A DNA stretch of 43,061 nucleotides from Alphaproteobacteria bacterium (GCA_024278615.1 JAJRSS010000006.1:1-43061); one strand, 5' to 3'; shown: positions 26,006 through 42,886, numbered from the stretch's first letter. Made by a program: numbers and translations. The notes: generated from the sequence alone by a model not told the origin.

Positions 26006-26776
26006 TCAGGTCTTTTCGTCGCCAGCAATCATGATTTCCGCCGTCAGCCGGTCAAGCTCTTCCTTCAAGGCTTCTTTTGGGTGGCGGTCGGTAATCAGGA
26101 AGGAAACCTGGTCCAGGTGGGCTACCCGAACCGGCGCCAGGCGGTTGAATTTCGTATGATCGGCAAGAAGCACCTTGGTCCGGCCCTGGGCCAGCATGCG
26201 ACTTCGAAGCTCTGCCGCTTCGCGGGAAAAGTCCAGTAACTGGGCCCCGCTGGTCAAGGCGCTGACCCCGATAAAGACAAAATCGGCGAAGTAGTTAGCC
26301 AGCATTTCGGTGGCGTCCCGGCCCAGGGTAGCCCCATCGGCGCCCTGCATTTCCCCGCCCAGAAGCAACACTCGGTTTTCGTTGCGCCCGGCCAGGCGGC
26401 CAGCCACCTGGATGTCATTGGTATAGACGGTGAGCCGGCGCCTTTGGGCCAGCGCACGGGCGAGGCAAATGGTTGTGGTGCCGGAATCGATAATTACCGA
26501 AGCCCCATCGGGGACCAGGGTAGCCGCAAGGCGGCCGATGGCGTTTTTGCCCTTTGTGTTGACCGACATACGATCAGCAAAGGCGGGCTCTTCCGTTTCC
26601 ACGGAAAGAGCGCCGCCATGGGTCTTTTTTAGAAGGTTTTCCGCTGCCAGGCGGGAAATGTCGCGGCGGATGGTTTCCCGGGATACGTGGAACCGCCGAT
26701 AGAGCTCGGCGACCGAAACCGACCCTTTTTCCCCCAGGATTTGGACGATAAGTCCCCGCCGTTCCTCGGCCAACAT
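26006..26776 (-). CDS. DeoR/GlpR-family transcriptional regulator
   Basis: HTH 'VSRETIRRDI', 'HGGA', 'IDSGTT', 'ADHTKF'; divergent from the AEP transporter. Confidence 0.93.
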   Translation of the reverse strand: MLAEERRGLIVQILGEKGSVSVAELYRRFHVSRETIRRDISRLAAENLLKKTHGGALSVETEEPAFADRMSVNTKGKNAIGRLAATLVPDGASVIIDSGTTTICLARALAQRRRLTVYTNDIQVAGRLAGRNENRVLLLGGEMQGADGATLGRDATEMLANYFADFVFIGVSALTSGAQLLDFSREAAELRSRMLAQGRTKVLLADHTKFNRLAPVRVAHLDQVSFLITDRHPKEALKEELDRLTAEIMIAGDEKT

Positions 26777-26803
26777 GGATGATAAACCTCTTTTACCGCG
26801 AGG

Positions 26804-26832
26804 AGTCTGTTCACGACCACCCCCGCCGTCAA
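26804..26832 (-). promoter_or_regulatory. Candidate sigma70 promoter of the DeoR gene
   Basis: Minus strand TTGACG-N17-CAGACT. Confidence 0.5.
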
Positions 26833-26869
26833 CCCCGGCCCGGAAAACTTTTTTGCAATAAATGCTTCA

Positions 26870-26911
26870 CATAAGCACCACAAAATAGGACCTTAAGGGA
26901 CCTAAGGTCCC
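26870..26911. promoter_or_regulatory. Candidate operator region between deoR and aepX
   Basis: TTTTGTGGTGCTTATG on the minus strand (26870-85), similar to 32822-36; overlapping palindromes GGACCTTA-N7-TAAGGTCC and GGGACCT-A-AGGTCCC (26888-26911). Confidence 0.5.
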
Positions 26912-27119
26912 ACCTCAGGCTACTGTTACGATATTGACCCCAAATTTTTTGGGGGAAAAGTAGTTTTTTGAGGTAAATCATTGAGTTATGGGGCTTGAAC
27001 GATCACCCGAAGGCCCGGTTGATGCTCAACCGAGCCCGAGACAAGAGGGTGTAAGAGGGAGAAATCAGGTGGATCAGCCACCTGAAGAACCGTTTACCAG
27101 GGAGATGGAGATTCTTTCC

Positions 27120-28163
27120 ATGCACATCAAATCAATGCCGAAATCGATTACGCGGGTCCTTGCGGCTACTGCCGTCGGTGTATTCACTGCGGGGATCAGC
27201 GCCCCGTTGTTCGCCGAGACGCTGACCGTTTATACAGCCGTTGAAGCCGAAGACCTGAAGAAGTATGCCGCCCGGTTCAACGAGGACCATCCGGATATCA
27301 AGATCAAATGGGTCCGGGATTCCACTGGTATTGTCACTGCCAAGTTACTGGCCGAAAAGAACAACCCCAAGGCCGACGTGGTCTGGGGCCTCGCCGCGAC
27401 CAGCCTGATGCTGTTGGGCGAAGAGAACATGCTACAGCCCTATGCACCCAAGGGCCTTGACAAGCTGGACCCCAAGTTCAGGGATTCGAAAAATCCGCCG
27501 TCATGGACGGGCATGGACGCCTGGGTGGCGTCCATCTGCTACAACACGGTCGAAGGCAAGAAGAATGGCGTCCCCAAGCCTACTTCGTGGAAAGACCTGA
27601 CAAAACCCGCCTATAAGGGCCATGTGATCATGCCTAACCCCAATTCCTCTGGCACCGGTTTCCTGGATGTTTCCAGCTGGTTGCAGTTGTTTGGCGAGGA
27701 AGGCGGTTGGAAGTTCATGGATGCCCTTCATGAAAATATTGCCCGCTATACCCACTCGGGCTCAAAGCCCTGCAAGCTGGCGGCAGCCGGTGAAATTACC
27801 GTTGGGGTATCCTTCGCTTTCCGTGGCGCCAAGTCCAAAGCCAAGGGCGCTCCGCTCGATATCGTCATTCCTACCGAGGGCATCGGCTGGGATATGGAAG
27901 CGACCTCCATCATCAAGGGCACCAAGAAGCTGAAAGCGGCTCAAACCCTGGTCGATTGGTCGATCTCTGAAAAGGCCAACAAGATGTATAATGAGGGCTA
28001 TGCCGTTATCGGTATCCCCAGCTTGGCCAAACCAGTTAAGTACTTCCCCAAGGAAGTCGCCACCAAGATGATCGACAACGACTTCGCCTGGGCGGCCAAG
28101 AACCGCAAGCGCATTCTTTCCGAGTGGCAGAAGCGTTTCGATTCCAAGTCCGATCCCAAGTAG
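27120..28163 (+). CDS. aepX: 2-aminoethylphosphonate ABC transporter substrate-binding protein (AepX/PhnS2 type)
   Basis: Signal peptide; 'LTVYTAVEAE', 'WVRDSTGIVTAKLLAEK', 'PNPNSSGTGFLDVS', 'YTHSGSKPC', 'GWDMEA'; phnWX nearby. GGAGA RBS before ATG 27120. Confidence 0.88.
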   Translation: MHIKSMPKSITRVLAATAVGVFTAGISAPLFAETLTVYTAVEAEDLKKYAARFNEDHPDIKIKWVRDSTGIVTAKLLAEKNNPKADVVWGLAATSLMLLGEENMLQPYAPKGLDKLDPKFRDSKNPPSWTGMDAWVASICYNTVEGKKNGVPKPTSWKDLTKPAYKGHVIMPNPNSSGTGFLDVSSWLQLFGEEGGWKFMDALHENIARYTHSGSKPCKLAAAGEITVGVSFAFRGAKSKAKGAPLDIVIPTEGIGWDMEATSIIKGTKKLKAAQTLVDWSISEKANKMYNEGYAVIGIPSLAKPVKYFPKEVATKMIDNDFAWAAKNRKRILSEWQKRFDSKSDPK

Positions 28164-28194
28164 CGGTTTCCTAACAAAACCGATCATGACAAAA

Positions 28195-28227: not shown

Positions 28228-28273
28228 CGATCATGAAGAGGAAGTTGTTCTTTCTGCTTCTTCCAAGAACAAT

Positions 28274-29404
28274 ATGAACAAGGGGATTGCGGTGGTAGAA
28301 ATGACCGCCGGCGCAGGCATCGATGGGCGAAAGCCCTATTTGCGCATCAATAACGTAACGAAGAAATTTGGCGATTTCGTTGCCCTGAACAGAGTATCCC
28401 TGGATGTCTACGAGGGTGAATTTGTCTGCTTCCTGGGGCCGTCCGGATGTGGCAAGACCACCCTGCTTCGGGCCATTGCCGGACTGGACATTCAGACATC
28501 GGGCACCATTGAACAGGCGGGAAAGGATATTTCCGACCTGCCCGCATCCGAGCGGGATTTTGGTATTGTTTTTCAGTCCTATGCGTTGTTTCCCAATCTG
28601 ACCGTCAACCGCAACGTCGCCTACGGCCTGGAAAATCGCAAGGTGTCCAAAGCGGACATTACCGCCCGGGTGGAAGAACTCCTCAATCTCGTGGGCATGC
28701 CGGAACAGGGACAAAAATATCCGGCTCAACTTTCCGGCGGACAGCAGCAACGTGTCGCCCTGGCACGGGCCCTGGCTACCTCGCCTGGCCTCTTGCTGCT
28801 GGATGAACCGCTGAGTGCCCTGGATGCCAAGGTACGCGTCCGCCTTCGCCACGAGGTCAAGCACCTTCAGCACAAGCTGGATGTCACCACCATCATGGTG
28901 ACGCACGATCAGGAGGAAGCCCTAACCATGGCCGACCGCATCGTGGTCATGAACCAGGGTGTGATCGAACAGGTAGGAACACCCCTGGAAATCTACCGCA
29001 GGCCAGGCAGCCCGTTCGTGGCAGACTTCGTCGGCACCATGAACTTCCTGGCGGCAACGGCCATAGGTAACGGAAAGGTGCGCATGGGAAACATCGAACT
29101 GTCCGCAGGGAACGACGGCGCCAACATTGGGGAAGGTACTCCGGTGACGCTTTGTGTCCGGCCCGAAGATGTGATGACCCGAAACGTGGAAGCAGACACC
29201 CCCAACGCGTTTGAAGTGACCGTTCAGGACATGGAGTTCCTGGGTTCGTTTTACCGCGCCGATATTTCACCCCGGGATGACGAGAAGACCGTTTTTCTGG
29301 CGGACCTGTCGATCAATCTGGTCCGTGACAAGAACATCATCAAGGGTATGAACCTGCCCGTCGCCTTTCCGGAAAGCCGAATCCGGGTTTTTTCACAGAC
29401 ATAG
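28274..29404 (+). CDS. aepV: AEP ABC transporter ATPase (AepV/PhnT2 type) with TOBE domain
   Basis: 'GPSGCGKT', 'FQSYALFP', 'LSGGQQQRVALARALATSPGLLLLDEP'. Start 28274 or 28301. Confidence 0.85.
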   Translation: MNKGIAVVEMTAGAGIDGRKPYLRINNVTKKFGDFVALNRVSLDVYEGEFVCFLGPSGCGKTTLLRAIAGLDIQTSGTIEQAGKDISDLPASERDFGIVFQSYALFPNLTVNRNVAYGLENRKVSKADITARVEELLNLVGMPEQGQKYPAQLSGGQQQRVALARALATSPGLLLLDEPLSALDAKVRVRLRHEVKHLQHKLDVTTIMVTHDQEEALTMADRIVVMNQGVIEQVGTPLEIYRRPGSPFVADFVGTMNFLAATAIGNGKVRMGNIELSAGNDGANIGEGTPVTLCVRPEDVMTRNVEADTPNAFEVTVQDMEFLGSFYRADISPRDDEKTVFLADLSINLVRDKNIIKGMNLPVAFPESRIRVFSQT

Positions 29405-29418: not shown

Positions 29419-31119
29419 GTGACGACCGCCGCCGCCATCCCGTTGCCGGAAATAAAACCGAAGCTGAGCGGCGACGACCGCATCATGCGCGGATTTATCC
29501 TGCTAGTCGGTGTGTGGATGGTGATTGCAGTCCTGTTACCCCTTTACTTCATGCTGTCGAAAAGCTTCGAAGACAACGACGGTAATTTCATAGGTCTCCT
29601 TAACTACGCCGAATACTTTTCCACTCCGGCGTTGTTCTATTCTATTGAAAACAGTTTTTTCATTGCCGTCGTTTCCACGGTAATCACGATCACCCTGGCA
29701 TTCATCTATGCCTATGCCTTGACCCGAAGCCTGATGCCTTTCAGGGGTGCCTTCAAGGTCATCGCCATGATCCCGTTGCTGGCACCTTCCCTGTTGCCGG
29801 CCATTTCTTTTGTTTACTTCTTCGGCAACCAGGGGGTGATCAAGGGTGTGCTAATGGGGGAAACCATTTATGGCCCCATCGGTATCATCATGGGGGAGGT
29901 GTTCTACACTCTGCCCCATGCCTTGATGATCCTGGTCACGGCGCTGAGTACGGCCGACGGCCGCCTTTACGAAGCGGCTATCAGCCTTCGCGCCGGCAAA
30001 ATCAAAACCTTTTTTACCGTCACCCTGCCCGGCATAAAATACGGGTTGATCAGCGCCATTTTTGTCGTCTTTACCCTGGTCATCACCGATTTCGGCATCC
30101 CCAAGGTGATTGGTGGCCAATTCAACGTGCTGGCGACAGACATCTATAAACAGGTCATCGGTCAACAGAATTTCGAGATGGGAGCGGTGGTCAGCGTCGT
30201 CCTGCTGATCCCGGCCATCGCCGCCTTCTTGGTCGACCGAATCGTCCAGCGCAAGCAGGTGGCTTTGCTCACTGCCCGCGCCGTGCCCCTGGAACCCAAG
30301 AAAAGCCGAGGGTTCGATACGGCCATGGGAATTTATTGTGCGACCATCGCCTTTGTGATCCTGGCCATAATAGGCATGGCAATCTATGCTTCCCTCGTCA
30401 CCTTCTGGCCCTACAACCTGACACTGGGCTTCACCAATTATGACTTCGATGTCATGGATGGCGGCGGCTGGGAATCCTTCGGTAATTCACTCAGGATGGC
30501 CGCCTATACAGCGGTGTTCGGCACGGCGATCATCTTTACCGGTGCCTACATGGTCGAAAAGACCAAGGGTTTCGCCCTAGCCCGGGGGGCAATTCAGTTC
30601 CTGTGTATCCTGCCCATGGCAGTTCCGGGCATGGTGCTGGGCTTGGCCTACATCTTTTTCTTCAATCACCCGGATAATCCGCTGGGGATGATTTATGGGA
30701 CCATGGTTATCCTGGTAGTGGTCACCATCAGCCACTTCTATACGGTCAGCCACCTGACGGCGCTGACGGCGCTGAAGCAGATGGACCCGGAATTCGAAGC
30801 GGTGTCCGCGTCCCTCAAGGTTCCCTTTTTCCGCACTTTCCTTAGAGTTACGGTTCCCGTCTGCCTGCCGGCCATCCTTGATATTTCCATCTATCTGTTC
30901 GTCAACGCCATGACCACGGTTTCGGCAGTGATTTTCCTGTATTCATCGGATACCAACCTGGCCTCGGTGGCGGCCCTGAACATGGACGACGCGGGCGACG
31001 TAGCACCCGCCGCGGCCATGTCCGTGATGATCGTGTTGGCTTCGGCGACGGTACGAATCCTCCATGCAATCCTTACCCGGGGCCTGGCCCGCCGCCTGCA
31101 AGCATGGCGAAAGCGCTGA
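29419..31119 (+). CDS. aepW: AEP ABC transporter fused double permease (AepW/PhnU2 type)
   Basis: Two permease repeats; 'LLAPSLLPAIS', 'TDFGIPKVIGG', 'NAMTTVSAVIFL', C-terminal 'QAWR'. Confidence 0.85.
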   Translation: MTTAAAIPLPEIKPKLSGDDRIMRGFILLVGVWMVIAVLLPLYFMLSKSFEDNDGNFIGLLNYAEYFSTPALFYSIENSFFIAVVSTVITITLAFIYAYALTRSLMPFRGAFKVIAMIPLLAPSLLPAISFVYFFGNQGVIKGVLMGETIYGPIGIIMGEVFYTLPHALMILVTALSTADGRLYEAAISLRAGKIKTFFTVTLPGIKYGLISAIFVVFTLVITDFGIPKVIGGQFNVLATDIYKQVIGQQNFEMGAVVSVVLLIPAIAAFLVDRIVQRKQVALLTARAVPLEPKKSRGFDTAMGIYCATIAFVILAIIGMAIYASLVTFWPYNLTLGFTNYDFDVMDGGGWESFGNSLRMAAYTAVFGTAIIFTGAYMVEKTKGFALARGAIQFLCILPMAVPGMVLGLAYIFFFNHPDNPLGMIYGTMVILVVVTISHFYTVSHLTALTALKQMDPEFEAVSASLKVPFFRTFLRVTVPVCLPAILDISIYLFVNAMTTVSAVIFLYSSDTNLASVAALNMDDAGDVAPAAAMSVMIVLASATVRILHAILTRGLARRLQAWRKR

Positions 31120-31235
31120 CAAACCCAACCGGACCGGCGAACCAGGTCAAATCCAATCTGGACTTTCTCCGCCCTGCCCTTACAGTTCGGCTATACCCGT
31201 AGCCCACCCGATCCGGATAACGGAGTACCGCCGAT

Positions 31236-32753
31236 ATGATTCCTTCCTTCGCCAAGCTGCTGACCGGCGATCAGGTGGCGCGCATAGCCGGGGCGTCCAT
31301 GGAAATCCTGGCGGACACGGGCCTTCTGGTGCGCAACGAAAAAGCCCGGAAGCTTTTCGCAAAGCATGGGGGCAAGGTTGATTCCCATAACCAGATGGTC
31401 AAGCTGCCCCGGCCGGTGGTAGAGGAGTTCATGGCCGCCGTGCCACCCACCTTCACCTTTCGGGGCCGCGACCCCCGCTTCGACCGCACCCTTCCCGGCG
31501 AAGGCCCCCTGTTCGCCACAGCCAGTTCCGCCCCCAACGTGATCGACCCGGTGAGCGGCGAAGAGCGGCGGGCGACCTCGGAAGATATCGCCCGCATGGC
31601 CCACCTGATCGACGCCCTGCCCGGTTACGACGTATTTTCCGTCGCCACCCTGGCCGATGACGCGCCGCCGGGCATGTACAGCTTGTCGCGTTTTTATCCG
31701 GCGCTGAAAAACTGCCGTAAGCCCATCCGGGCGTCCCTGCTGAGCCCAAAGGAAGCCGATGAAATGGTCCGCCTGCTGGGTATTATCGCCGGCGGCGAAG
31801 AGGCCTTTTGGGAGCGGCCCTTCATTACCTTCGGCTTCTGCGCGGTCATATCGCCGCTGACCATGGATTACGACGCCACCGAGATGCTGATGTATTACGC
31901 CGAAAAGGGCATCCCCAATCACTCCATCACGGTGCCCAACGGGGGCTTGAGTTCACCCTTCACCCTGGCGGCGACCACGGCCCAGGGCAACGCCGAATTC
32001 CTGGCCGCCACGGTTTTGACCCAGATGGCCAAACCAGGGACGGAAGTACTGTATTCCGTGCTGCCGACCATGACCGACATGCGTACCGGCGCCTATGCTG
32101 CCGGAGCCGTGGAAACGGGCATGCTGGACATGGCGGTGGCCCAGATGGCGGCCTATCACAACGTTGCCTGTGGCGGTTACATCGGGCAAACCAATTCCAA
32201 GATCAGCGACGCCCAGGCCGGGTACGAAAAAGCCATGTCTTCGACTATGGGCGTGCTGGCCGGGTTCGATTTCCTTCAGGTGGGCGGCCTTGTGGACACC
32301 CTCATGGCTTTCGATTTCGGCCAAGCGGTGATTGATAACGAAATTGCCATGATGCTCAAGCGGTTGACCCAGGGCATGGAATTCAGCGAGGAAAGCCTGG
32401 CCCTCGACATCATCAAGGAAGTGGGGCCGGCGGGCATGTTCGTCGATCACCCACATACCTTCGAGCGCATGAAAACCGCCACCTACCTGCCCCAAGTGGC
32501 CGACCGCACCCCCCGCCAGACCTGGAAGGAACTGGGTTCCACGGATATCCACGACCGAGGCCTGTGGCGGGCGCGCGAGATCCTGACGGCCAACAACGAC
32601 GCGGTATTTTCGTCCGCTGTGGACGCCCGAATCAGGGCCACCTTCGACGGGCTGGTCGCCGGCGATTCCCTGCCGCCAGAAGGCTGGACAGCCCCCGGAC
32701 TGGCCCCCCGGCGGCGCCAAAGGACCGGCCGGCGGCGTGCCCCTCGCCGCTAA
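31236..32753 (+). CDS. Non-pyrrolysine trimethylamine methyltransferase (MttB) superfamily protein
   Basis: 'SMEILADTG', 'P.TFTFRGRDP', 'ISPL', 'GNAEFLA', 'DMRTG', 'SKISDAQAGYEK', 'VIDNEI', 'IIKEVGPAG..HPHT'; no in-frame TAG. Confidence 0.92.
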   Translation: MIPSFAKLLTGDQVARIAGASMEILADTGLLVRNEKARKLFAKHGGKVDSHNQMVKLPRPVVEEFMAAVPPTFTFRGRDPRFDRTLPGEGPLFATASSAPNVIDPVSGEERRATSEDIARMAHLIDALPGYDVFSVATLADDAPPGMYSLSRFYPALKNCRKPIRASLLSPKEADEMVRLLGIIAGGEEAFWERPFITFGFCAVISPLTMDYDATEMLMYYAEKGIPNHSITVPNGGLSSPFTLAATTAQGNAEFLAATVLTQMAKPGTEVLYSVLPTMTDMRTGAYAAGAVETGMLDMAVAQMAAYHNVACGGYIGQTNSKISDAQAGYEKAMSSTMGVLAGFDFLQVGGLVDTLMAFDFGQAVIDNEIAMMLKRLTQGMEFSEESLALDIIKEVGPAGMFVDHPHTFERMKTATYLPQVADRTPRQTWKELGSTDIHDRGLWRAREILTANNDAVFSSAVDARIRATFDGLVAGDSLPPEGWTAPGLAPRRRQRTGRRRAPRR

Positions 32754-32821
32754 CCCTTTACACAATAACGACTAATTTTCTGCTCTTCCCTGTGGGGTTT
32801 TTTTTCGAGAGCAGTGTTGAT

Positions 32822-32836
32822 TTTTGTGGACTTATG
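32822..32836 (+). promoter_or_regulatory. Second copy of the candidate operator, upstream of phnW
   Basis: TTTTGTGGACTTATG versus TTTTGTGGTGCTTATG at 26870-85 (minus strand). Confidence 0.45.
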
Positions 32837-32894
32837 ACCGTTTATGCCCGATATTGCGCGCCGACGAAAGCCACTTGCCCCAAGGTCGCCAGCC

Positions 32895-34040
32895 ATGAGC
32901 AACACCCGAAAAGACCCCTCGCCGAAGGATCCTTGGCTGCTGACCCCCGGCCCGCTGACCACCACGGCGGCGACCAAGGAAGCCATGCTCCATGACTGGG
33001 GCTCGCGGGATACCGCTTTCATCGAGACCAACGCCCGTGTCCTTAACCGCCTGTTGGCCATCGCCGGAGCCAGCGAGACCCACGTCTGCGTGCCCATGCA
33101 AGGCAGCGGCACTTTCGCCGTGGAAGCCACCCTGGGGACGTTGATCCCGCGGGACGGCAAGGCGCTGATCCTGATCAACGGCGCCTACGGCAAGCGCATG
33201 GTCCGCATTCTCGACTATATGGGCCGCGCCCACGTCATTCTGGAAACGCCGGAGGACACGCCCCCCGACCCGGCGGAACTTGACCGCATGCTGGCCGCCG
33301 ATACGGCCATCACCCATGTGGCCGCCGTCCATTGCGAAACCACGTCGGGAATCCTCAACCCGATCGCCGAAATCGCCCGCATCGCCGCCAAGCACGGGCG
33401 CAGCCTGTTGATCGACGCCATGAGCGCCTTCGGCGCTATTGCCCTGGACGCCCGGGAAATTCCCTTCGACGCCCTGATGGCGTCTTCCAACAAGTGCCTG
33501 GAGGGCGTGCCCGGCATGGGCTACGCCATCATCCGCAAGTCGGTGCTGGAAACCTGCGAGGGCAACGCCCATTCCCTGAGCCTGGACTTGTATGACCAGT
33601 GGGTGGCTATGGAAAAAACCAGCCAATGGCGCTTCACCCCGCCGATCCACGTGATCGTCGCCTTCGATGCGGCACTGGAACAGTTCGAAGCCGAAGGCGG
33701 CGTCGCCGGGCGCAACGCCCGCTACGCCAACAATTGCCGGATCCTGATGGAAGGCATGCGGGCGCTGGGTTTCCGGGCCCTGCTCTCCGGCAACCTGCAG
33801 GCGCCGATCATCGTCACCTTCCACCTGCCCGCCGATCCCCGTTTCGTTTTTGAGATCTTCTACAATTCCCTCAGGGACCGGGGCTATGTCATCTATCCGG
33901 GCAAGCTGACCGTGGCGGACAGTTTCCGCATCGGCTGTATCGGCAACCTGGGCGAAAACGAAATGCGTGGCGCGCTAAGCGCCATTAGCGAAGTGATCAC
34001 CGAAATGGGTGTGAAAACCGGCGCGCCGGCCGCCGCCTGA
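32895..34040 (+). CDS. phnW: 2-aminoethylphosphonate:pyruvate transaminase
   Basis: 'LLTPGPLTT', 'QGSGTFAVE', 'HCETTSG', 'DAMSAFG', PLP Lys in 'SSNKCLEGVPG', 'WRFTPP', 'IYPGKLT'. Confidence 0.96.
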   Translation: MSNTRKDPSPKDPWLLTPGPLTTTAATKEAMLHDWGSRDTAFIETNARVLNRLLAIAGASETHVCVPMQGSGTFAVEATLGTLIPRDGKALILINGAYGKRMVRILDYMGRAHVILETPEDTPPDPAELDRMLAADTAITHVAAVHCETTSGILNPIAEIARIAAKHGRSLLIDAMSAFGAIALDAREIPFDALMASSNKCLEGVPGMGYAIIRKSVLETCEGNAHSLSLDLYDQWVAMEKTSQWRFTPPIHVIVAFDAALEQFEAEGGVAGRNARYANNCRILMEGMRALGFRALLSGNLQAPIIVTFHLPADPRFVFEIFYNSLRDRGYVIYPGKLTVADSFRIGCIGNLGENEMRGALSAISEVITEMGVKTGAPAAA

Positions 34041-34086
34041 GGCGGATCATCCGGCGGCTATTCCACGAAACACAATGGAGGCCGAG

Positions 34087-34935: not shown

Positions 34936-34958
34936 GGTTGGGTAAGGGTTCGGCTTAC

Positions 34959-35012
34959 AGCGGTCAGCATTCAGCCTTTAGCTCAAATTCCGCTACCTGA
35001 ATGCTGACCGCT
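34959..35012. repeat. 16-bp perfect inverted repeat built from 7-mer units (REP-like)
   Basis: AGCGGTCAGCATTCAG-N22-CTGAATGCTGACCGCT. Confidence 0.8.
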
Positions 35013-35467: not shown

Positions 35468-35496
35468 TTGACTATAGAATATATTTTAGATATTTT
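35468..35496 (+). promoter_or_regulatory. Candidate promoter of the corrinoid module with an overlapping AT-rich palindrome
   Basis: TTGACT-N17-TATTTT; near-palindrome TAGAATATATTTTA (35475-88) lies in the spacer. Confidence 0.5.
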
Positions 35497-35543
35497 GTGT
35501 ATATAGCATTCAAACCCATCCGGGAAACCTGATTGGGGGAACG

Positions 35544-36155
35544 ATGGAAACCTTCACGCCACAGGAAATCACCATCGCCGTGGAGCCCTTGCTGCGCATC
35601 CAGGGCTACCGCGATTTGGACAAGGTACGCGCGCCGATCAAAAAGGTGGCCGCCAAAATGGCTGCCCGAGCCCAGCAACTGGCGGAGCCCATTGCCGTTT
35701 ACCGTAAGGTGCCGATCAAATCCGTAGATGGTAATTCGGTGACCCTGGGCGCCGGCACCGTATTTCACAGTGAGGAATTCCCCAGGTTTCTGACCGGGTG
35801 CGGCGAAGTGGTGGTCTTTGTACTGACCATCGGCACCGCTTTCGATGCGGAAGTCCAGGCACTCATCGAAGAAGACAAGATCCTTGAGTTGCTGTTTTTT
35901 GAAAACGCCGGCTGGATCGGAGTGGAAAGCGCCACCAAGACTTTTTCCCGCCACCTTCAGGCCATGGCCCGCCAACAGGGCTGCCAACTGACCCGCCGCC
36001 TGGCCCCTGGGTACCAGAACTGGCGCCTGGAGGAACAAGCGAACTTTTTCAGCCTGTTTGAAACCGGCGCCCTTCCCGTCCGCCTTCTCGAAAGTTGCGC
36101 CATGCTTCCCAAAATGTCCCGTTCCGGGCTTTACGGATTGAAACCATCATTATAG
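35544..36155 (+). CDS. Stand-alone B12-dependent methionine synthase activation-domain-like protein
   Basis: 'VFVLTIG', 'RRLAPGYQNW..EEQ', 'SCAMLPKMSRSGLYG' resemble the MetH C-terminal reactivation domain. Confidence 0.8.
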   Translation: METFTPQEITIAVEPLLRIQGYRDLDKVRAPIKKVAAKMAARAQQLAEPIAVYRKVPIKSVDGNSVTLGAGTVFHSEEFPRFLTGCGEVVVFVLTIGTAFDAEVQALIEEDKILELLFFENAGWIGVESATKTFSRHLQAMARQQGCQLTRRLAPGYQNWRLEEQANFFSLFETGALPVRLLESCAMLPKMSRSGLYGLKPSL

Positions 36156-36214: not shown

Positions 36215-37189
36215 ATGACCATTGGCTCACACGGCCTGATTATCATCGGCGAGAACTTCAATACTACCCGCAAGATCCGCGGCACCAGTCCGCGCGTAGT
36301 GCGCGAGGGGGACAAGCAGGGCCTGTCCTATACGGACCTGGACGGCACGGTGCGAATCCTGGACATCCCCGACCCCCTGCCCGAGGATCCGGGCGAACTG
36401 AAGACCACCATGATCCCCCATATCGGCTTGGCCCTGCGCAACAAGGACATGGACTACATCCGCTGGGCGATCATGGCCCAGGTGGAAGCCGGCGCCCATA
36501 TCATCGATATCTGCGTCGATGAAATGTCTCACTACCCGGAGGAACGGGCCGACTGGATGCGCTGGACCGTCGAAGCCGTGCAGAAAATGACCGACGTGGC
36601 GCTGGCCATCGATTCCTCGGACCCGCAAACGGTAAAGGCGGGGCTGGAGGTCTATGACACCTCGAAAAGCCGGCCGGCGATCAATTCCGTCAACCTTGAA
36701 GAAAACCGCCTGCCGCTGATTCCCATGGCTAAGGAAATGAATGCCTACCTGTTCGCCAACGCCGGAGGGTCATCGGGTATGCCGCAAAATGCCCAAGACC
36801 GGGTGGACAACCTTGAGCAACTGATGAAGATGATGGATGACGCCGATGTCCCCATGGAAGACCGCTTCCTCGACCCCCTGGTTTTTCCCATCGGCGCCGG
36901 TCCCGACTTCGGCTTGCACTACCTGGACGCGGTAAAGACGCTGCGCCAACGGTATCCGGAGGTGCATATCTTCGGCGGCCATAGCAATACTTCCTTCGGC
37001 CTGCCGGGCCGCAAGGGACTCAATAACGCGTTCATCGTCCTTTCCATGTTGGCCGGGTGCGATACCCTGATGATCGACCCGATCATGAACCCGCCGGCGG
37101 AACTGATCGAATTTCGCATGGCCGCCGACGCGCAGACCGGCAAGGACGAATTCGCCATGAAGTATCTCAAGTACTGGCGGGCGAAATAG
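36215..37189 (+). CDS. Pterin-binding corrinoid:tetrahydrofolate methyltransferase (AcsE/MetH folate-domain type, MT2)
   Basis: 'IIIGENFN', 'QVEAGAHIIDI', 'IDSSD', 'INSVNLE', 'DPLVFPIG', 'GGHSNTSFGLP'. Confidence 0.9.
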   Translation: MTIGSHGLIIIGENFNTTRKIRGTSPRVVREGDKQGLSYTDLDGTVRILDIPDPLPEDPGELKTTMIPHIGLALRNKDMDYIRWAIMAQVEAGAHIIDICVDEMSHYPEERADWMRWTVEAVQKMTDVALAIDSSDPQTVKAGLEVYDTSKSRPAINSVNLEENRLPLIPMAKEMNAYLFANAGGSSGMPQNAQDRVDNLEQLMKMMDDADVPMEDRFLDPLVFPIGAGPDFGLHYLDAVKTLRQRYPEVHIFGGHSNTSFGLPGRKGLNNAFIVLSMLAGCDTLMIDPIMNPPAELIEFRMAADAQTGKDEFAMKYLKYWRAK

Positions 37190-37232: not shown

Positions 37233-38402
37233 GTGAAGGAACTGTCACACCGGGAAAGGTTCATCCGCGCCCTGCGCCATGAACCCATTGACCGTCTGCC
37301 AAGGTTTTTCCGCTTCAAGCGTGAAGCCAAGGAGAAAGTCGCCCGCATCTTCGGCATCACAGACGCGGAAACGGGCCTGGGTCACCAGCCCGACCTGGAA
37401 CTGCGCATGGGCAACGATGTCGTGCTTTATCAGATTGGCATTAACGCGGAGTTCTCCCACCGGGAAATCGCTATCGGCGACACCTGGCACAGCCCGTTTA
37501 ACGTCGGCTACGGCAAAAGCGGTCTGCAAGGCCGCAACGAGGAAGAACACAAGGAATTCATGAAGACCCAGGAATACTGGGGCCCGGCCAAGGTAGTACC
37601 GGAGAACTTCCCCAGTTCCCACCCCATCACCTCCATGGAAGACCTGAAAAACTACAAGTGGCCCGACCCCGACGATCCCCGTTTGCTCGATCCGATCAAG
37701 AAGATGGTCGACGAATACGGGGATGAATATTTCACCATGGTAGACTTGTCCTCGACCCTGATCGAGGCCGCTTACGCCCACATCGTCGGCACCCAGAAAT
37801 TCTTCCTCATGCTGTTCGACCAACCGGAACTGATCGAAGGGGTTCTGGACGGGCTGACCGAATACTACACGGAACTGGGTAAGAATGCCGTCAAACTGGG
37901 CATCGACATGATCCGTGTCGGAGACGACGTGGGCGCCCAGCAGTCCATGATGCTGTCGCCAGATTCCTGGCGTGAACTGGCCAAGCCCCGGTTCGAATAC
38001 ATGTTCAAGGAATTCAAGAAGGTCAACAAGGACCTGTTCATCAAGCTGCATTCCTGCGGCGACTATTCACCGATCATCCCAGACATCATTGAACTGGGGG
38101 TAGATTTGTCGGGGCTCATGCAGCCCACGGGCGGTAATAAGGATCAGGTGGGGATCAAGAAAAAATACGGCGCCGACCTGGCCCTGGTCGGCGGCTTCGA
38201 CGTGCAGAACCTCCTTCCCCGGGGTTCGGTGGAAGACGTTCGCGCTGGCGTCCTGGAGGTGATCAAGAACCTGGGTGTCGGCGGTGGTTATATTTTTTCG
38301 CCGTCCCACTACATCCTGGCCGACGTCCCCATCCAGAACATCTGGGCGATGTACGAAGCGGTCCAGGATTTCGGGGAGTACGGCAAGTACCCGCTCGACT
38401 GA
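37233..38402 (+). CDS. UroD/MtaA/CmuA-superfamily TIM-barrel protein, probable corrinoid methyltransferase
   Basis: 'RERFIRAL...DRLP', 'WPDP', 'GDDVGAQQSMMLSP', 'LHSCG', 'GGFDVQ', 'GGGYIFSPSH'. Confidence 0.85.
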   Translation: MKELSHRERFIRALRHEPIDRLPRFFRFKREAKEKVARIFGITDAETGLGHQPDLELRMGNDVVLYQIGINAEFSHREIAIGDTWHSPFNVGYGKSGLQGRNEEEHKEFMKTQEYWGPAKVVPENFPSSHPITSMEDLKNYKWPDPDDPRLLDPIKKMVDEYGDEYFTMVDLSSTLIEAAYAHIVGTQKFFLMLFDQPELIEGVLDGLTEYYTELGKNAVKLGIDMIRVGDDVGAQQSMMLSPDSWRELAKPRFEYMFKEFKKVNKDLFIKLHSCGDYSPIIPDIIELGVDLSGLMQPTGGNKDQVGIKKKYGADLALVGGFDVQNLLPRGSVEDVRAGVLEVIKNLGVGGGYIFSPSHYILADVPIQNIWAMYEAVQDFGEYGKYPLD

Positions 38403-38425: not shown

Positions 38426-39133
38426 ATGTCCGAACCAAGATTGAAAATCCCCGAAGGCTGGGAGGAACGAGCCCCCGAAGGGTGGGAGTGGAGCGAACTG
38501 TGGGAAGCCGTGGAAGTGGGCAAGCACATATTCACCGATGAATTCGTCCGCAAAGCCATCGACACCGGCATCAATCCACGTACGATCCTGGATGACGGCC
38601 TGTTCCCGGGCTTCAACCTGCAAGGGGACCGTTTCACTGAACAGATCATCTTCATCCCCGAAATGCTGATCACTGCCCGGGCCATGAAGGCGGGACTGGC
38701 GTTGATCCGCCCACTGCTCGCCGCCCAAGCGGAAAAACCCATCGGTGTTTTTGTCATGGGCACGGTGCTGGGCGACATGCACGATATCGGCCAATCCATT
38801 GTCGCCATCATGCTGGAAAACGCCGGATTCCAGTTGACCAACCTGGGTACTGACGTACATCCGGATAAGTTCATCGAGACTATCAAGGAATTGAAAGCCG
38901 ATCTGGTCGGCTTTTCCGCCCTTCTTTCGACCACCGTCTATTATCAAAAAGTGACCATTGACGAGATTGAAAAAGCGGGGCTTCGTGACAATGTGAAGAT
39001 TCTCATTGGCGGCGCTCCCACGACCCAGGATTGGGCGGACGAAATTGGCGCCGACGGCTGGGGACGGGATGCGGTACAGGCCGTCAAGCAGGCCAAACGG
39101 CTGATCGCCGAACCTCGGACGGCGTGGGCGTAA
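38426..39133 (+). CDS. Corrinoid (B12-binding) protein, cap plus Rossmann domain
   Basis: 'FIPEML..A..MK' cap domain, base-off/His-on motif 'GDMHDIG', 'SALLSTT', 'IGGAP', 'IGAD'. Confidence 0.94.
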   Translation: MSEPRLKIPEGWEERAPEGWEWSELWEAVEVGKHIFTDEFVRKAIDTGINPRTILDDGLFPGFNLQGDRFTEQIIFIPEMLITARAMKAGLALIRPLLAAQAEKPIGVFVMGTVLGDMHDIGQSIVAIMLENAGFQLTNLGTDVHPDKFIETIKELKADLVGFSALLSTTVYYQKVTIDEIEKAGLRDNVKILIGGAPTTQDWADEIGADGWGRDAVQAVKQAKRLIAEPRTAWA

Positions 39134-39155: not shown

Positions 39156-41057
39156 ATGAGCGAGAACGTCAGCGTTACTTTCGTCGATGGGGACGGCAAA
39201 CAAACGTCCCGGAAGGTGGGTCGGGGAAGTACCTTCATCGACGCCGCCCAGGACCTGAACCTGGATATTGCCGCCACCTGCGGCGGCCGGGGCCGGTGCC
39301 GAAGCTGCCGGATCAAGGTATTGAAAGGCATCCTGCCGCCGCCCACCATCATGGATCAGGTGCAACTGGGCCCCGATGAAGTGCATGAAGGATTCCGCCT
39401 GTCCTGTCAGACCAAGGTGATCGCCGATTGCACGGTGCTGGTGGCGCCGCCCATCGCCGAAGGCGGTCATAAGATTTTGGGTGCCGGAGTCTCTGAAGAT
39501 ACGCAGTTTCACCTTGATTCCGGCATCGAGAAAAAGCTGGTCGCCGCCAACACGCCGAAGGACGAAAACCACCAGACCTCGGACATGGAGATGATTTTGG
39601 TTGCGCTGGGCGAGCCGGTAAACGGCGACGTCCCCATCGAAGTCCTCCGCAAGGCACCCGACGTGATACGCGCCAAGGGCGGGTCGCTGACCGTCACCAC
39701 CTTCAACCACCGGGTCATCGACGTGGAGCCGGGAGACACCACGCGACACAAGTACGGCATGGCCTTCGACATTGGCACCACCAGTATCGTCGGATCATTG
39801 GTGGACCTGGAAACAGGCGAACAACTGGCCTCCGTCGGCGGCGTCAATCCCCAGGCGGTGTTCGGCGGCGACCTGATGTCGCGCATCGCCTATGCCCAGT
39901 TCAACCCCCAGGCCCTGCGCAAGCTTCGCTCGCGGGTGCTGGCGGAAATCAATGGTTACGTCAAGGAAGTGTGCGGGAACAATAATATCTCCGCCGGCCA
40001 TATCTATAAAATGGTTATCGTCGGTAATACCTGCATGCATCATATCTTCCTGGGTATCGATCCCACCTATGTTGGCTTGGCTCCTTATGCGCCGACCGTG
40101 CGCGAACCGGTGGTGGTGACCGCCAAGGAAGCTTTGCTGAAGGTCAACCCCAACGCACGGATTTGCTTCCTGCCCATTGTCGCCGGGTTCGTCGGCGCCG
40201 ATACGGTGGCCGCCGTCCTCGCCACCCGCATCCACGAAAGCGACCACATACGGGTGATGGTGGATATCGGCACCAACGGCGAAGTGGTCATGGGCACACG
40301 GGGCCGGCTGATGGCCTGCTCGGCGCCCGCCGGCCCGGCCCTGGAGGGGGCGCAAATCCATCACGGCATGCGGGGCGCCGTGGGCGCCATAGAAAAGGTG
40401 GAAATTGACGGCGACGTGACATGTGAAACCATCGGCGGGGCACCGGCGGTGGGTATTTGCGGGTCCGGCCTGGTCGACGCGGCGGCCAAGATGCTCGAGG
40501 CGAAAGTGATCAATCCTTCCGGCTTGCTGCGCCGGGACGGGGGTGAAGGGCTGCCGGAAAAAATCAAGGCCCGCATCGTCGAAGGGGATAACGGCTGGCA
40601 TTTCGTCCTTACCTGGGCCAAGGACACCGGCAAGGACGAGGATATCTACCTCACCCAGCAGGACATCCGCCAGCTTCAACTGGCCAAAGGCGCCATCTAT
40701 TCGGGTATCCTGATGCTGCAAAAGGTGATGGGCGTGGCCGATGGCGACATTGAGGAACTGATGCTGGCCGGCGGCTTCGGCAACTACATCAGTACGGAAA
40801 GCTCGGTCGCCATTCGGCTTCTTCCCAATCTGCCCCTGGAAAAAATAGCCTACGTGGGCAACGCCGCCGCCCTCGGCGCCCAGATGGCCCTTCTGTCGGA
40901 GACAGAGCGGCGGCGCGCCACCACCCTGGCCCGCGAGATCGAGCACGTTGCCCTGGCCACCAATCCGGACTTCCAGGAAATCTTCGTCAAGGCAGTGGTT
41001 TTCGGAGACGAAACGAAAAGGAAAAGCAGAACCCGCACCAGAACCAAGGTGGGTTAG
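39156..41057 (+). CDS. RamA/RACo-type ATP-dependent corrinoid activator (N-terminal 2Fe-2S plus ASKHA/DUF4445)
   Basis: 'CGGRGRCRSC' and 'RLSC' ferredoxin ligands; 'DIGTT', 'GFVGAD', 'DIGTNGE', 'AGPALEG', 'GICGSG', 'QLAKGAI', 'LAGGFG'. Confidence 0.93.
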   Translation: MSENVSVTFVDGDGKQTSRKVGRGSTFIDAAQDLNLDIAATCGGRGRCRSCRIKVLKGILPPPTIMDQVQLGPDEVHEGFRLSCQTKVIADCTVLVAPPIAEGGHKILGAGVSEDTQFHLDSGIEKKLVAANTPKDENHQTSDMEMILVALGEPVNGDVPIEVLRKAPDVIRAKGGSLTVTTFNHRVIDVEPGDTTRHKYGMAFDIGTTSIVGSLVDLETGEQLASVGGVNPQAVFGGDLMSRIAYAQFNPQALRKLRSRVLAEINGYVKEVCGNNNISAGHIYKMVIVGNTCMHHIFLGIDPTYVGLAPYAPTVREPVVVTAKEALLKVNPNARICFLPIVAGFVGADTVAAVLATRIHESDHIRVMVDIGTNGEVVMGTRGRLMACSAPAGPALEGAQIHHGMRGAVGAIEKVEIDGDVTCETIGGAPAVGICGSGLVDAAAKMLEAKVINPSGLLRRDGGEGLPEKIKARIVEGDNGWHFVLTWAKDTGKDEDIYLTQQDIRQLQLAKGAIYSGILMLQKVMGVADGDIEELMLAGGFGNYISTESSVAIRLLPNLPLEKIAYVGNAAALGAQMALLSETERRRATTLAREIEHVALATNPDFQEIFVKAVVFGDETKRKSRTRTRTKVG

Positions 41058-41235
41058 CAGGATGCTGAAAAACTCCAAAACTGACGTAATCAACTTTCGA
41101 CACCGGCCTAATTTTCTAGGAGGCCGCCGGACGCGGGATGAGGCGACGCTATTGGAACTCCTCTTCTTGAGGGACGAGCGCAAGCGGGAGTCTCGAAGGA
41201 TCGTTGTCGCAAACACCCTTTTTCAGCACCCTGTT
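41056..41235. mobile_element. Roughly 180-bp MITE-like element with 17-bp terminal inverted repeats
   Basis: Left AGCAGGATGCTGAAAAA (41056-72) and right TTTTTCAGCACCCTGTT (41219-35) are 15/17 complementary; no transposase inside. Confidence 0.65.
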
Positions 41236-41246
41236 GGGGGCTCGGC

Positions 41247-42209
41247 ATGAAAGTGAGCCTGATCTTCGGTTTTTTGGGTTCGGGCAAGACTACCTTGCTG
41301 CGCCACATCCTGGCCGAAAGGGCGGCCAAGCAATCCATGGCGGTAATCGTCAACGAATTCGGCGAAGTGGGTATCGACGGCGCCATCCTCGCCGGTAATA
41401 ACGTCGACATGGTAGAGCTGAATTCCGGCTGCCTGTGCTGCACCCTGAAGGGGCCGCTGCTCAACGCGGTGGAGGAACTTCGCGACCGCGCCGGCGTCGG
41501 GCACACGGTAATCGAAGCCTCGGGCCTGGCCCACCCGGAGGAAATGGAGGAAACCTTCGCCAATCCCAGGTTGGGAACCACGGTGGATGTGGGTCCTTAC
41601 GTCACCGTTGTGGACGGGCACAAGTTTGCCAGGCTGCGCCAGGGCCTGGGGGAATTCTACGTGGACCAAGTGGCCTATGCGGACGTGATCCTGCTCAACA
41701 AGGCCGACCTCATGTCGGCCGACGAAATGGAAATATTGAAAAAGGAAATCAACGCCATCAATCCCGATGCCGAAATTTTGGTGACCGAACGGTGTGATGT
41801 TGATCCCGGGTCGGTCCTGGACAGCAGGAAAGTTGCGGAAAAAGCCGCGCAAGCCGATCCCCATCATTCCCCCGGTCATTCCCCCCTTCACTCTCATGAA
41901 TCCTTTGATTCCCTGGTCCTGAATTCCGGCGCGGATGCGGCGCGGGGCCGGGTCCAGCGGTTCTTCTCGGGCCTTGCGCCCAACGTGTTGAGGGCCAAGG
42001 GGTTCATGACCATCGACGGCCGGCTGTCGCTGGTGCAGTACGCCGCCGGGCAGTTGGAAATCGAGGACAACCCGGCCGCCTCCGCCACCCAGGACCCCGC
42101 CCGCCAGATGGTGTTTATCGGCGAGGGCCTAAACCGGGCGGCCCTGGAATCCGAATTCGCCTTCGCCCGCCGGAAAAACGGAAATGGGACCGAAGAGAAT
42201 GGAACATGA
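41247..42209 (+). CDS. CobW/COG0523-family P-loop GTPase metallochaperone
   Basis: 'GFLGSGKTT', 'VNEFGEVGIDG', 'GCLCC', 'EASG', 'NKAD', His-rich linker, 'RAKG', 'VFIG'. Confidence 0.93.
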   Translation: MKVSLIFGFLGSGKTTLLRHILAERAAKQSMAVIVNEFGEVGIDGAILAGNNVDMVELNSGCLCCTLKGPLLNAVEELRDRAGVGHTVIEASGLAHPEEMEETFANPRLGTTVDVGPYVTVVDGHKFARLRQGLGEFYVDQVAYADVILLNKADLMSADEMEILKKEINAINPDAEILVTERCDVDPGSVLDSRKVAEKAAQADPHHSPGHSPLHSHESFDSLVLNSGADAARGRVQRFFSGLAPNVLRAKGFMTIDGRLSLVQYAAGQLEIEDNPAASATQDPARQMVFIGEGLNRAALESEFAFARRKNGNGTEENGT

Positions 42210-42886
42210 CCAAGCCTAACCTGGCCGCGGTGAAGGAACTCAATCCCCCTTCCCTGTCGGAAAAGGCCTATCAGCTTCTGTTGCGCAAGATCACTCGGCT
42301 GGAACTGGCGCCGGGGGCGGTGCTGGCGGAAAGGGCGCTGATGAACGAACTGAATATCGGGCGTACACCGATCCGCGAGGCGTTGCAGCGGCTGGCCAGC
42401 GAAGGCCTGGTTTCCCACCTGCCCAACCGCGGCATGTTCGTCACCGAAATCGGCGCCACCAGCGTCCAGCAAATCTATGAATTCCGCGCCATGATCGAAG
42501 GCTTCACCGCCCGCCTGGCCGCCAGCCGCGCCACCGAGGAAGAAATCGCCGAACTGGCGTCGCTCCACCAGCAGTTGGCGGGAGCGACGAAAAAGAACGA
42601 CATCGACTTGTACGTCGACTTGGATTTCCACTTCCACGTCCTGCTCGCCCAGGCGTCAAAGAACGCCTACCTGGAAGAGGTAGTGCCGCGGATTTTTTAT
42701 CTTCACCTCAGGCTGTGGTTTTTTATCTCCAGCCGGACGGGAAACTGGCGCTCCATCGCCGACGCCCACGACGGAATGACCGATGGCGTCGTCAAAGCCC
42801 TGAAAAGCCGCGACCCCGACGAAGCGGAAAGGGCCATGCAGTCCTATATCTCGCTCCGACACACCGACATCAAGGACGTGCTGTAG
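42206..42886 (+). CDS. GntR-family (FCD) transcriptional regulator
   Basis: 'LAPG..L.E', 'GRTPIREALQRL..EGLV...PNRG', FCD domain 'DFHFH'; ATGA overlap with cobW. Confidence 0.93.
   Translation: MTKPNLAAVKELNPPSLSEKAYQLLLRKITRLELAPGAVLAERALMNELNIGRTPIREALQRLASEGLVSHLPNRGMFVTEIGATSVQQIYEFRAMIEGFTARLAASRATEEEIAELASLHQQLAGATKKNDIDLYVDLDFHFHVLLAQASKNAYLEEVVPRIFYLHLRLWFFISSRTGNWRSIADAHDGMTDGVVKALKSRDPDEAERAMQSYISLRHTDIKDVL

Follow-up and report, generated by a model that had tools for sequence, protein, structure and literature searches.

The stretch of DNA analysed here (the window; 43,061 nt, GCA_024278615.1 JAJRSS010000006.1:1-43061) comes from a marine alphaproteobacterial metagenome-assembled genome (MAG; G000; 3.46 Mb, 329 contigs, 95.6% complete), whose nearest named relatives are Thalassospiraceae/Rhodospirillales MAGs. 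The studied segment (26006-42886) contains a gene for a methyltransferase of the MttB superfamily between genes for the uptake and the hydrolysis of 2-aminoethylphosphonate (AEP). A DeoR-family regulator gene on the minus strand is divergent from the plus-strand genes aepX-aepV-aepW-mttB-phnW-phnX, which are separated by gaps of 14-116 bp. After a 608-bp gap, a second plus-strand row encodes an activation-domain-like protein, a pterin methyltransferase, a UroD-like protein, a corrinoid protein, a RACo, a CobW protein, and a GntR regulator. Genes were called from the open reading frame (ORF) list together with Pfam and NCBIfam profiles with curated cut-offs, and the features are as follows.

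23805-24467, plus strand: PhoU_div (DUF47) protein (Pfam).
24475-25959, plus strand: PHO4/PitA-type phosphate transporter (Pfam).
26006-26776, minus strand: DeoR-family regulator (Pfam HTH_DeoR and DeoRC).
26988-28163, plus strand: AepX, substrate-binding protein (TIGR03261 phnS2, 532 bits; cut-off 393).
28274-29404, plus strand: AepV, ATPase (TIGR03265, 527 bits; cut-off 458).
29419-31119, plus strand: AepW, fused permease (TIGR03262, 827 bits; cut-off 593).
31236-32753, plus strand: MttB-superfamily methyltransferase, 505 aa (PF06253, 299 bits).
32844-34040, plus strand: PhnW, 2-aminoethylphosphonate:pyruvate transaminase (NF010006, 554 bits; cut-off 296; TIGR02326 also above cut-off).
34075-34935, plus strand: PhnX, phosphonoacetaldehyde hydrolase (TIGR01422, 292 bits; cut-off 220).
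34936-35543: intergenic gap of 608 bp; two long inverted repeats, promoter-like site (35468-35496).
35544-36155, plus strand: 203-aa protein with weak likeness to the MetH activation (AdoMet) domain (Pfam Met_synt_B12, E 4e-4, below cut-off).
36215-37189, plus strand: pterin-binding methyltransferase of the methyl-corrinoid:tetrahydrofolate type (PF00809, 67 bits).
37233-38402, plus strand: URO-D/MtaA-CmuA-family protein (PF01208, 110 bits).
38426-39133, plus strand: corrinoid (B12-binding) protein (PF02310 and PF02607; D-x-H-x-x-G motif).
39156-41057, plus strand: RACo/RamA-type reductive activase (Fer2, RACo_linker, Raco_middle, RACo_C_ter).
41247-42209, plus strand: CobW-family GTPase (Pfam).
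42206-42886, plus strand: GntR/FCD regulator (Pfam).

All genes named in the initial annotation were recovered at the coordinates and on the strands first described, with agreement among the ORF list, Pfam, and NCBIfam, and their identities and order are confirmed. AepX passes its family cut-off and is encoded in the same operon as phnW and phnX, while PhnW and PhnX, both above their cut-offs and encoded 34 bp apart, make up the hydrolytic pathway; each of these two is single-copy in G000 by tblastn. From its gene content, the first half of the segment is read as a DeoR-controlled operon for AEP uptake (AepXVW) and hydrolysis (PhnW, PhnX) with an inserted non-pyrrolysine mttB. The assembly was checked by laying Logan contigs of the public runs X1, X2, and X3 on the window junctions. 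The mttB-phnW junction is bridged by X1 (32298-33182), X2 (32508-33541), and X3 (32628-33247), and the aepW-mttB junction by X3 (31022-31442); X2 stems from a different study than X1 and carries 46 differing letters in 1034 (~95.5% identity). Since public contigs from two studies bridge the mttB-phnW junction and one contig the aepW-mttB junction, the arrangement is not an assembly artefact. The contig ends at position 43061, 175 bases 3' of the GntR gene, so the cluster may extend further.

Among solved structures, AepX is closest to proteins with phosphorylated ligands (AfuA, 4r72, 175 bits; the pyridoxal phosphate-binding P5PA, 6wce). According to the accessible part of PMC8316502, the AepX of S. 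stellulata binds AEP at 23 nM and is highly specific. As a separate observation, the window AepX and AepW share 85% identity with their counterparts in G144 (L091), a genome of another family, and only 55-70% with those of the window's own family, a pattern that suggests lateral transfer of the transporter.

The 211-bp region between the DeoR gene and aepX contains a perfect palindrome, GGGACCTAAGGTCCC. DeoR orthologues (55-68% identical) adjoin aepX or PbfA-PhnW in G062, G140, G144, and G005, and in G187 a DeoR gene directly precedes the mttB orthologue, both in the same orientation. The window's aep cluster is preceded by the PhoU_div and PitA-type genes, with housekeeping genes further up. 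The same pair adjoins DeoR/aepX in G108 (L037) and DeoR-PbfA-PhnW in G005 (L092); in G140 (L088), PitA alone was seen next to DeoR, at the cut end of the locus, and in metagenome locus L073 a PitA-like and PhoU_div-like pair adjoins a true AepX. The pair may handle phosphate freed from phosphonates.

When the family of the source genome was examined, G062 was found to carry DeoR and a contiguous aepXVW-phnWX row in which aepW is followed directly by phnW, which identifies mttB as an insert into an existing operon. The linkage between mttB and the phosphonate genes, whose restriction to one genome would have counted against the initial annotation, recurs in G108, in G187, and beyond the family. 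Within the family it takes three arrangements in three genera. G000 has aepW-mttB-phnW. G108 (contig C30; L002/L036/L037) has PhoU_div-PitA-DeoR, aepXVW, and phnW-phnX, with ~16.5 kb between aepW and phnW. This insert holds three mttB copies in tandem (57, 58, and 71% identity with the window MttB), an APH::class-III aminotransferase fusion (808 aa), a URO-D::corrinoid fusion (660 aa), a DAO-FAO_M-GCV_T gene resembling dimethylglycine dehydrogenase (DMGDH-like; 805 aa), and a CHAT/TPR gene (1115 aa), after which phnWX follows. In G187, of a third genus, aepX is divergent from a row of DeoR, mttB (65%), corrinoid protein, and pterin methyltransferase genes. Across the 15 family genomes, a Pfam scan located 27 MttB-family genes, all in 3 of them; five belong to the clade of the window MttB, and all five stand beside aep genes. 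None of the other 22 lies on the same contig as PhnW, a weak negative given the short contigs.

The aepW-phnW junction is, however, an insertion hot spot. Three relatives hold unrelated genes there: an M23 peptidase gene in G140 (L088), MtrA/MtrB-like cytochrome/porin genes with a short-chain dehydrogenase/reductase gene in G002 (L090), and a UbiA-like gene in G144 (L091). With unrelated genes at this junction, the position of mttB alone is weak evidence. MttB could demethylate an ordinary quaternary amine without relation to phosphorus, for instance a betaine or choline derivative, its gene having landed in an insertion-tolerant junction and the corrinoid genes being general methylotrophy equipment; G000 fits this account in having nine MttB-family matches but a single RACo. 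We consider it an unlikely explanation. The family linkage is restricted to the clade (5/5 members against 0/22 other paralogues), and in G187 mttB is directly downstream of the aep regulator.

The mttB frame is continuous, without an in-frame stop or TAG, and matches PF06253 over residues 6-468, far above the cut-off of 25 bits, which makes the protein a non-pyrrolysine member of the MttB superfamily. Identity as trimethylamine methyltransferase proper was rejected, the score to TIGR02369 (trimeth_pyl) being 391 bits, under the curated cut-off of 525. The window copy is 25-30% identical to the seven other full-length paralogues among the nine matches in G000. Its closest solved relative is D. 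hafniense MtgB (214 bits). According to the accessible part of PMC13080624, MtgB contacts glycine betaine through Y97 and F356 (cation-pi) and through R312 and H348 (carboxylate), and R312 is kept in MtcB, MtpB, MthB, and MtyB.

When the window MttB was aligned to MtgB, all four contact positions mapped consistently, with a numbering offset of +2, and all four residues were replaced (Y97 by S97, R312 by G313, H348 by Q348, and F356 by L356). Across 67 clade rows, S97 is present in 66 and L356 in all 67, position 348 is Q, N, or V depending on the subclade, and the loop aligned to R312 carries Gly (G313) in 67 of 67 rows and lacks a basic residue. Two assignments were rejected on these grounds: glycine betaine methyltransferase (MtgB), whose four contact residues are all absent from the window MttB and the clade, and an acidic-quaternary-amine enzyme of the MtcB/MtpB/MtyB/MthB type, whose R312-equivalent Arg is missing; the residue conservation of those four enzymes is taken from the accessible part of PMC13080624. 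The clade conserves Ser/Thr/Gly-rich motifs at 95-101 and 311-320 and the motif G-G-L-x-D-x-L-M-x-F-D at 350-361. By these residues, the pocket is wider and differs in its build from that of every characterised member. We infer that the clade's pocket residues may bind a phosphonate. The loss of the four glycine betaine contacts and of the common Arg also argues against an ordinary quaternary amine as substrate, the more so as three paralogues elsewhere in G000 do carry the canonical R and H at the R312 and H348 positions. The three mttB paralogues of G108 differ from one another at pocket positions 97, 98, 315, 316, and 348, which would fit related but distinct substrates.

Of the 8000 candidates scored in a protein search with the window MttB, 2959 matched at E<=1e-20. 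Identity is 58% or higher for each of the top 120, whose named sources are labelled Chloroflexota or Anaerolineales. Clade loci were collected by pattern scans from species-representative genomes (23 loci, all in MAGs, at least seven phyla) and from metagenomes (39 loci), and a search of the plasmid collection returned 47 records, all at most 32% identical and none in the clade. A quick maximum-likelihood tree of 70 rows was rooted on 10 paralogues, with the Shimodaira-Hasegawa-like approximate likelihood ratio test (SH-aLRT) as sole branch support; it leaves out seven near-duplicate metagenome rows and L078, whose match is shorter than 400 residues. The clade (60 rows) received 100% SH-aLRT support, with a Clostridiales row at its base and three subclades, A (98), B (98), and C (95). 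Subclade A unites the window protein with G108 copy 3, G187, and four metagenome proteins, subclade B contains Anaerolineae and a group of anaerobes, and in subclade C, G108 copies 1 and 2 are sister to 25 rows.

Phosphonate-type neighbours were found at 10 of the 62 clade loci (6/23 in genomes, 4/39 in metagenomes) and in all three subclades, against ~0.5 of 62 loci expected by chance, a rough estimate with no computed control. The linked loci represent the window's family, with L001 and L002 as its two loci among the phosphonate-linked genome loci, and six further lineages, that is, about seven independent lineages. L073 encodes MttB, a URO-D protein, an alanine racemase, a PitA-like protein, PhoU_div, and a true AepX (434 bits; cut-off 393). 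In L076 (1119-9191), genes for a non-pyrrolysine MtmB homologue (457 aa), a corrinoid protein, an AepX-like substrate-binding protein, a permease, an ATPase, and the clade MttB are co-directional. L078 contains an electron transfer flavoprotein, a DMGDH-like gene of the G108 type, an AepX-like substrate-binding protein, a permease, an ATPase, and mttB, and in L015 an AepX-like gene lies 5.5 kb upstream of mttB. The AepX-like proteins of L076, L078, and L015 reach 246, 247, and 197 bits to TIGR03261, their sole NCBIfam match at E<=1e-25, and stay below its cut-off of 393. Given the phosphorylated ligands of the solved proteins nearest to AepX, these diverged proteins probably recognise a phosph(on)ate too.

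The Desulfobacterales loci L011, L022, and L066 carry PbfA genes beside mttB. Both PbfA copies in L011 and in L022 score 644-723 bits (cut-off 525), and that of L066, cut by the contig end, was matched by tblastn only (94% identical to the L011 copy). In L009, a PbfA (662 bits) is encoded three genes from mttB. PbfA is strictly specific for (R)-1-hydroxy-2-aminoethylphosphonate and always occurs within aminophosphonate clusters, according to the accessible part of PMC8154272. That clade members are linked to phosphonate genes in bacteria of several unrelated groups suggests a route for N-methylated phosphonates that has yet to be described, and the occurrence of AepX, an AepX-like protein, or PbfA in six other lineages speaks against chance insertion of an ordinary amine methyltransferase gene. 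No OpuAC/BCCT-type betaine transporter was seen beside annotated clade members, among the part of the neighbours scanned.

Three further observations concern these loci. Two unrelated corrinoid methyltransferase families stand beside one phosph(on)ate-type importer in L076. Alanine racemase genes occur both inside the MttB-AepX row of L073 (4751-5866) and in the window (16267-17391), 10 kb upstream of aepX. On contig C198 of G000 (L041:240-2609), a PbfA orthologue (56-65% identical to the MttB-linked PbfA genes) lies beside a gene for an EamA-family transporter, and an EamA gene is also found near the MttB-PbfA locus L022.

A phosphorus-gene context could also arise if the clade's substrate is a quaternary amine bearing a phosphate ester, phosphocholine for example, through shared regulation or through promiscuity between esters and phosphonates. 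Six substrates have been described for the superfamily (trimethylamine, glycine betaine, proline betaine, carnitine, gamma-butyrobetaine, and phosphocholine), according to the accessible part of PMC12155760; phosphocholine, the substrate of MthB and the closest known chemistry, was missing from the list of the initial annotation. Further in favour of an ester, the nearest solved AepX relatives bind phosphate esters, PitA and PhoU_div genes flank the clusters, and G108 encodes the APH-kinase::class-III aminotransferase fusion. This fusion is presumably of the kind known for ethanolamine kinase joined to phosphoethanolamine phospho-lyase. We nevertheless regard a phosphate ester as quite improbable. 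The recurrent neighbours are phosphonate-specific, with PhnW, PhnX, true AepX, and PbfA all above curated cut-offs; the clade lacks the R312 that MthB keeps; G000 has no orthologue of the APH fusion; and no MthK-like kinase was found among 10 neighbours scanned beside Clostridia, Desulfobacterales, and Spirochaetota members.

The second half of the segment has features of its own. Directly after phnX, the gap contains an inverted repeat with 16-bp arms and a G9...C9 hairpin (34936-35100), which may be a terminator or a repeat element. The promoter scan (7 sites, 6.7 expected) and the terminator scan (17, 19.8 expected) gave counts at the level of shuffled sequence and serve as pointers only. 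No Rfam family, hence no cobalamin riboswitch, was found in 22000-43061, and the region upstream of aepX and the gap after phnX share no operator-like 12-mer with one mismatch allowed. The 608-bp gap is likely a boundary between two transcription units. Downstream of it, the 203-aa protein matches PDB 1j6r (E 0.006, residues 5-194) and has no paralogue in G000, and the pterin methyltransferase scores 217 bits to NF005719, below the cut-off of 259. The URO-D protein scores 78 bits to TIGR01463, also below cut-off, and has MtaA (4ay7, 47 bits) as its best PDB match. It contains an H-S-C motif, and no second Cys was seen after this H-x-C motif, a second Cys being among the zinc ligands of MtaA. 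The activase is a RACo by all four of its profiles (PF00111, PF17650, PF17651, and PF14574, each above cut-off).

By tblastn, G000 contains one RACo, nine MttB-family, six corrinoid-protein, four pterin-methyltransferase, and four URO-D-family matches. As no second RACo was found in this 95.6% complete genome, the window copy presumably serves all corrinoid systems and would be general equipment, not proof of a dedicated system. The orthology of the partner proteins likewise counts against a dedicated set. The corrinoid protein encoded after mttB in G187 has its orthologue on contig C29 of G000 (65%, against 40% for the window copy), and the G187 pterin methyltransferase has its orthologue on contig C8 (67%, against 32%). 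Contig C167 of G000 carries a paralogous GntR-corrinoid protein-UroD-pterin methyltransferase-UroD set, whose GntR is 37% identical to that of the window. Given this orthology, the C167 set, and the hairpins, the second half is read as a module of its own, probably a separate URO-D-type corrinoid methyltransferase module with a shared activase.

The initial annotation had treated the downstream genes as dedicated partners of MttB, with all four components of a corrinoid system (MttB, corrinoid protein, pterin methyltransferase, and RACo) beside the AEP operon. Their presence within 10 kb stands, while the cognate partnership is unsupported by orthology. That both halves of 26006-42886 form one dedicated four-component system, in which the UroD-like protein carries out further demethylation, is a doubtful reading, although it would account for the co-directional order of all components, for a sole RACo copy placed at this locus, and for the URO-D-family genes that neighbour clade MttBs in L073 and in G108, where the URO-D part is joined to a corrinoid domain. 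The hairpins and the 608-bp gap stand between the halves with no common operator-like word, the G187 partner orthologues map to C29 and C8, and the C167 set exists independently of MttB. The URO-D proteins of the window, L073, and G108 were also tested for orthology and share no detectable similarity with one another.

The best single explanation for the locus is corrinoid-dependent demethylation of an N-methylated aminophosphonate feeding PhnW and PhnX, which we hold with moderate confidence. MttB would bind the N-methylated aminophosphonate, with N,N,N-trimethyl-2-aminoethylphosphonate (trimethyl-AEP) as the best candidate, since all non-pyrrolysine members characterised so far act on quaternary amines. 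That the superfamily can accept a quaternary amine with a phospho group is shown by MthB. One methyl group would be transferred to the Co(I) of a corrinoid protein and from there, by a pterin methyltransferase, to tetrahydrofolate, and RACo would re-reduce the corrinoid protein once it is oxidised to Co(II). Dimethyl- and monomethyl-AEP would be demethylated by other enzymes, for which DMGDH-like flavoenzymes, with FAD oxidoreductase and folate-binding GcvT domains, are the best candidates. Genes of this kind occur in the G108 cluster, beside the AepX-like transporter of L078, and, as G108-type copies, after mttB in G005 and G002; a 65%-identical orthologue of the G108 gene is located on the 4-kb contig C38 of G000. 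PhnW and PhnX would then turn the resulting primary amine, AEP, into acetaldehyde and phosphate, and PitA/PhoU_div may take up the handling of the released phosphate.

Several observations weigh against this explanation. The known non-pyrrolysine MttB enzymes all take a single methyl group from a quaternary amine; one such step yields no primary amine for PhnW, and the next two steps are not encoded in the window. The ligand set in the accessible part of PMC8316502 for S. stellulata AepX does not include N-methyl forms. Co-occurrence of the clade with PhnW was considered as support and rejected as uninformative: all 10 clade genomes encode PhnW, but so do 50 of the 59 genomes in their four families (across the order, PhnW is present in 134 of 301 genomes and the clade in 10 of 301). 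Most clade loci show no phosphonate gene in the available flanks. Subclade C mostly has a LysR, mttB-DMGDH-like arrangement (10/23 genome and 11/39 metagenome loci), the commonest clade context, which mirrors the conversion of glycine betaine to dimethylglycine and sarcosine and thereby favours an ordinary quaternary amine. An Anaerolineae type (3/23 and 9/39 loci) consists of GntR/UTRA-mttB-RACo-corrinoid protein-homocysteine methyltransferase-DUF1638-MTHFR-pterin methyltransferase.

Ten clade-bearing genomes outside the order were scanned in full. In those of L011, L022, L009, L016, and L019, PhnX was found in 0/5, PhnW in 3/5, PbfA in 4/5, PhnA in 1/5, and AepX above cut-off in 2/5. The L019 genome (Anaerolineae) has no PhnW, PhnX, PbfA, PhnA, or AepX above cut-off, again as would be expected if the substrate were an ordinary amine. 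For those of L005, L006, L008, L010, and L020, the scan covered AepX and PbfA: AepX was present in 3/5 and PbfA above cut-off in 1/5, and the L010 and L020 genomes have neither. Anaerobes that harvest only a methyl group might not need C-P cleavage. As an observation in its own right, the flavoenzyme of the LysR/mttB-DMGDH-like loci (L005-L010, L016, L020, L055-L064, and others) keeps 72-89% identity between loci of Alpha- and Gammaproteobacteria, of a Haliangium MAG, and of a 'Poriferihabitaceae' MAG, which suggests lateral spread of a two-gene demethylation cassette.

The initial proposal of B12-dependent demethylation feeding PhnW and PhnX thus retains the support of the recurrent linkage and the distinct pocket, while the later steps fall outside the window and the two halves of the segment come apart. 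An extension of the explanation to the entire clade, as dedicated to trimethyl-AEP or, where PbfA adjoins, to its 1-hydroxy form, is tentative and less probable than its failure. The clade counts thousands of metagenomic proteins that are 50-70% identical, and its occurrence spans Alpha- and Gammaproteobacteria, Desulfobacterales, Chloroflexota, Spirochaetota, Clostridia, and Myxococcota. If the extension holds, the clade would represent a global, B12-dependent, O2-independent route joining the marine phosphonate cycle to one-carbon/folate metabolism. In anaerobes, use of the substrate would end with the harvested methyl group, in aerobes it would continue via DMGDH-like flavoenzymes to PhnW-PhnX, PhnA, or PbfA, and the three tandem G108 paralogues would cover different head groups or methylation states.

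N-methylated aminoethylphosphonates are natural phosphonolipid head groups in marine invertebrates. To our knowledge, their only described degradation needs oxygen or flavin oxidation. The proposed route would explain the use of methylated AEPs in anoxic sediments and animal-associated niches, with one substrate supplying one-carbon units (as methyl-tetrahydrofolate), nitrogen, acetaldehyde, and phosphate. The substrate classes of the MttB superfamily would rise to seven, with a phosphonate among them for the first time. A very large MttB clade, so far uncharacterised, would gain a function, and the route would be one more contributor to the known ocean demand for vitamin B12. A literature search of full main texts found no paper in which aminoethylphosphonate is connected with MttB or with corrinoid methyl transfer. 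The words methyltransferase, corrinoid, and cobalamin are absent from the main texts of PMC10590968 and PMC12366243, and PMC9324843, in its accessible part, covers both topics in different organisms.

Elsewhere in the window, an ORF at 15553-16257 (within 14746-16257) has a DnaB_C match that starts only at profile position 58 and is preceded on the same strand by a separate 258-aa ORF, so that dnaB may be split here or the assembly faulty.

Among characterised systems, MthB/MthC/MthA of Eubacterium limosum resembles the proposed one in combining a non-pyrrolysine MttB enzyme, a phospho-bearing quaternary amine, a corrinoid protein, a pterin methyltransferase, and an activase, according to the accessible part of PMC12155760. 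The two differ in that the window clade lacks the acid-binding Arg (MtgB R312) reportedly kept in MthB, and in that no MthK kinase gene lies near the window mttB, whose neighbours are phosphonate genes, not choline genes. MtgB of D. hafniense (PDB 2qne/9yce) shares the fold and family and is the best solved match, but 0/4 of its glycine betaine contacts are kept, and the window context consists of AEP genes, not betaine genes. MtgBCD works in aerobic marine Alphaproteobacteria (Ruegeria pomeroyi) with RamA and a pterin methyltransferase, according to the accessible part of PMC12478193, and the MttB-family genes of Sinorhizobium and Ruegeria plasmid records are at most 32% identical to the window MttB. 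The second half of the segment resembles CmuA/CmuB and MtaA-type systems in its pterin methyltransferase, URO-D-family methyltransferase, and corrinoid protein, although the window URO-D protein matches MtaA at just 47 bits. The G108 URO-D::corrinoid fusion resembles the CmuA architecture.

With respect to the proposed purpose, the closest parallels are the TmpA/TmpB and PbfB/PbfC/PbfD systems, accessory cluster genes that widen the range of PhnW-PhnX or PhnA to N-methylated aminophosphonates. The TmpA/TmpB oxygenase route reportedly degrades trimethyl-AEP. According to the accessible part of PMC10590968, the FAD oxidoreductases PbfB, PbfC, and PbfD act on AEP and N-methyl-AEP, methylated AEPs being handled by the flavoenzymes PbfC and PbfD. 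Whereas those systems remove methyl groups by O2- or FAD-dependent oxidation, the system proposed here would transfer the methyl group to Co(I) and save it as methyl-tetrahydrofolate.

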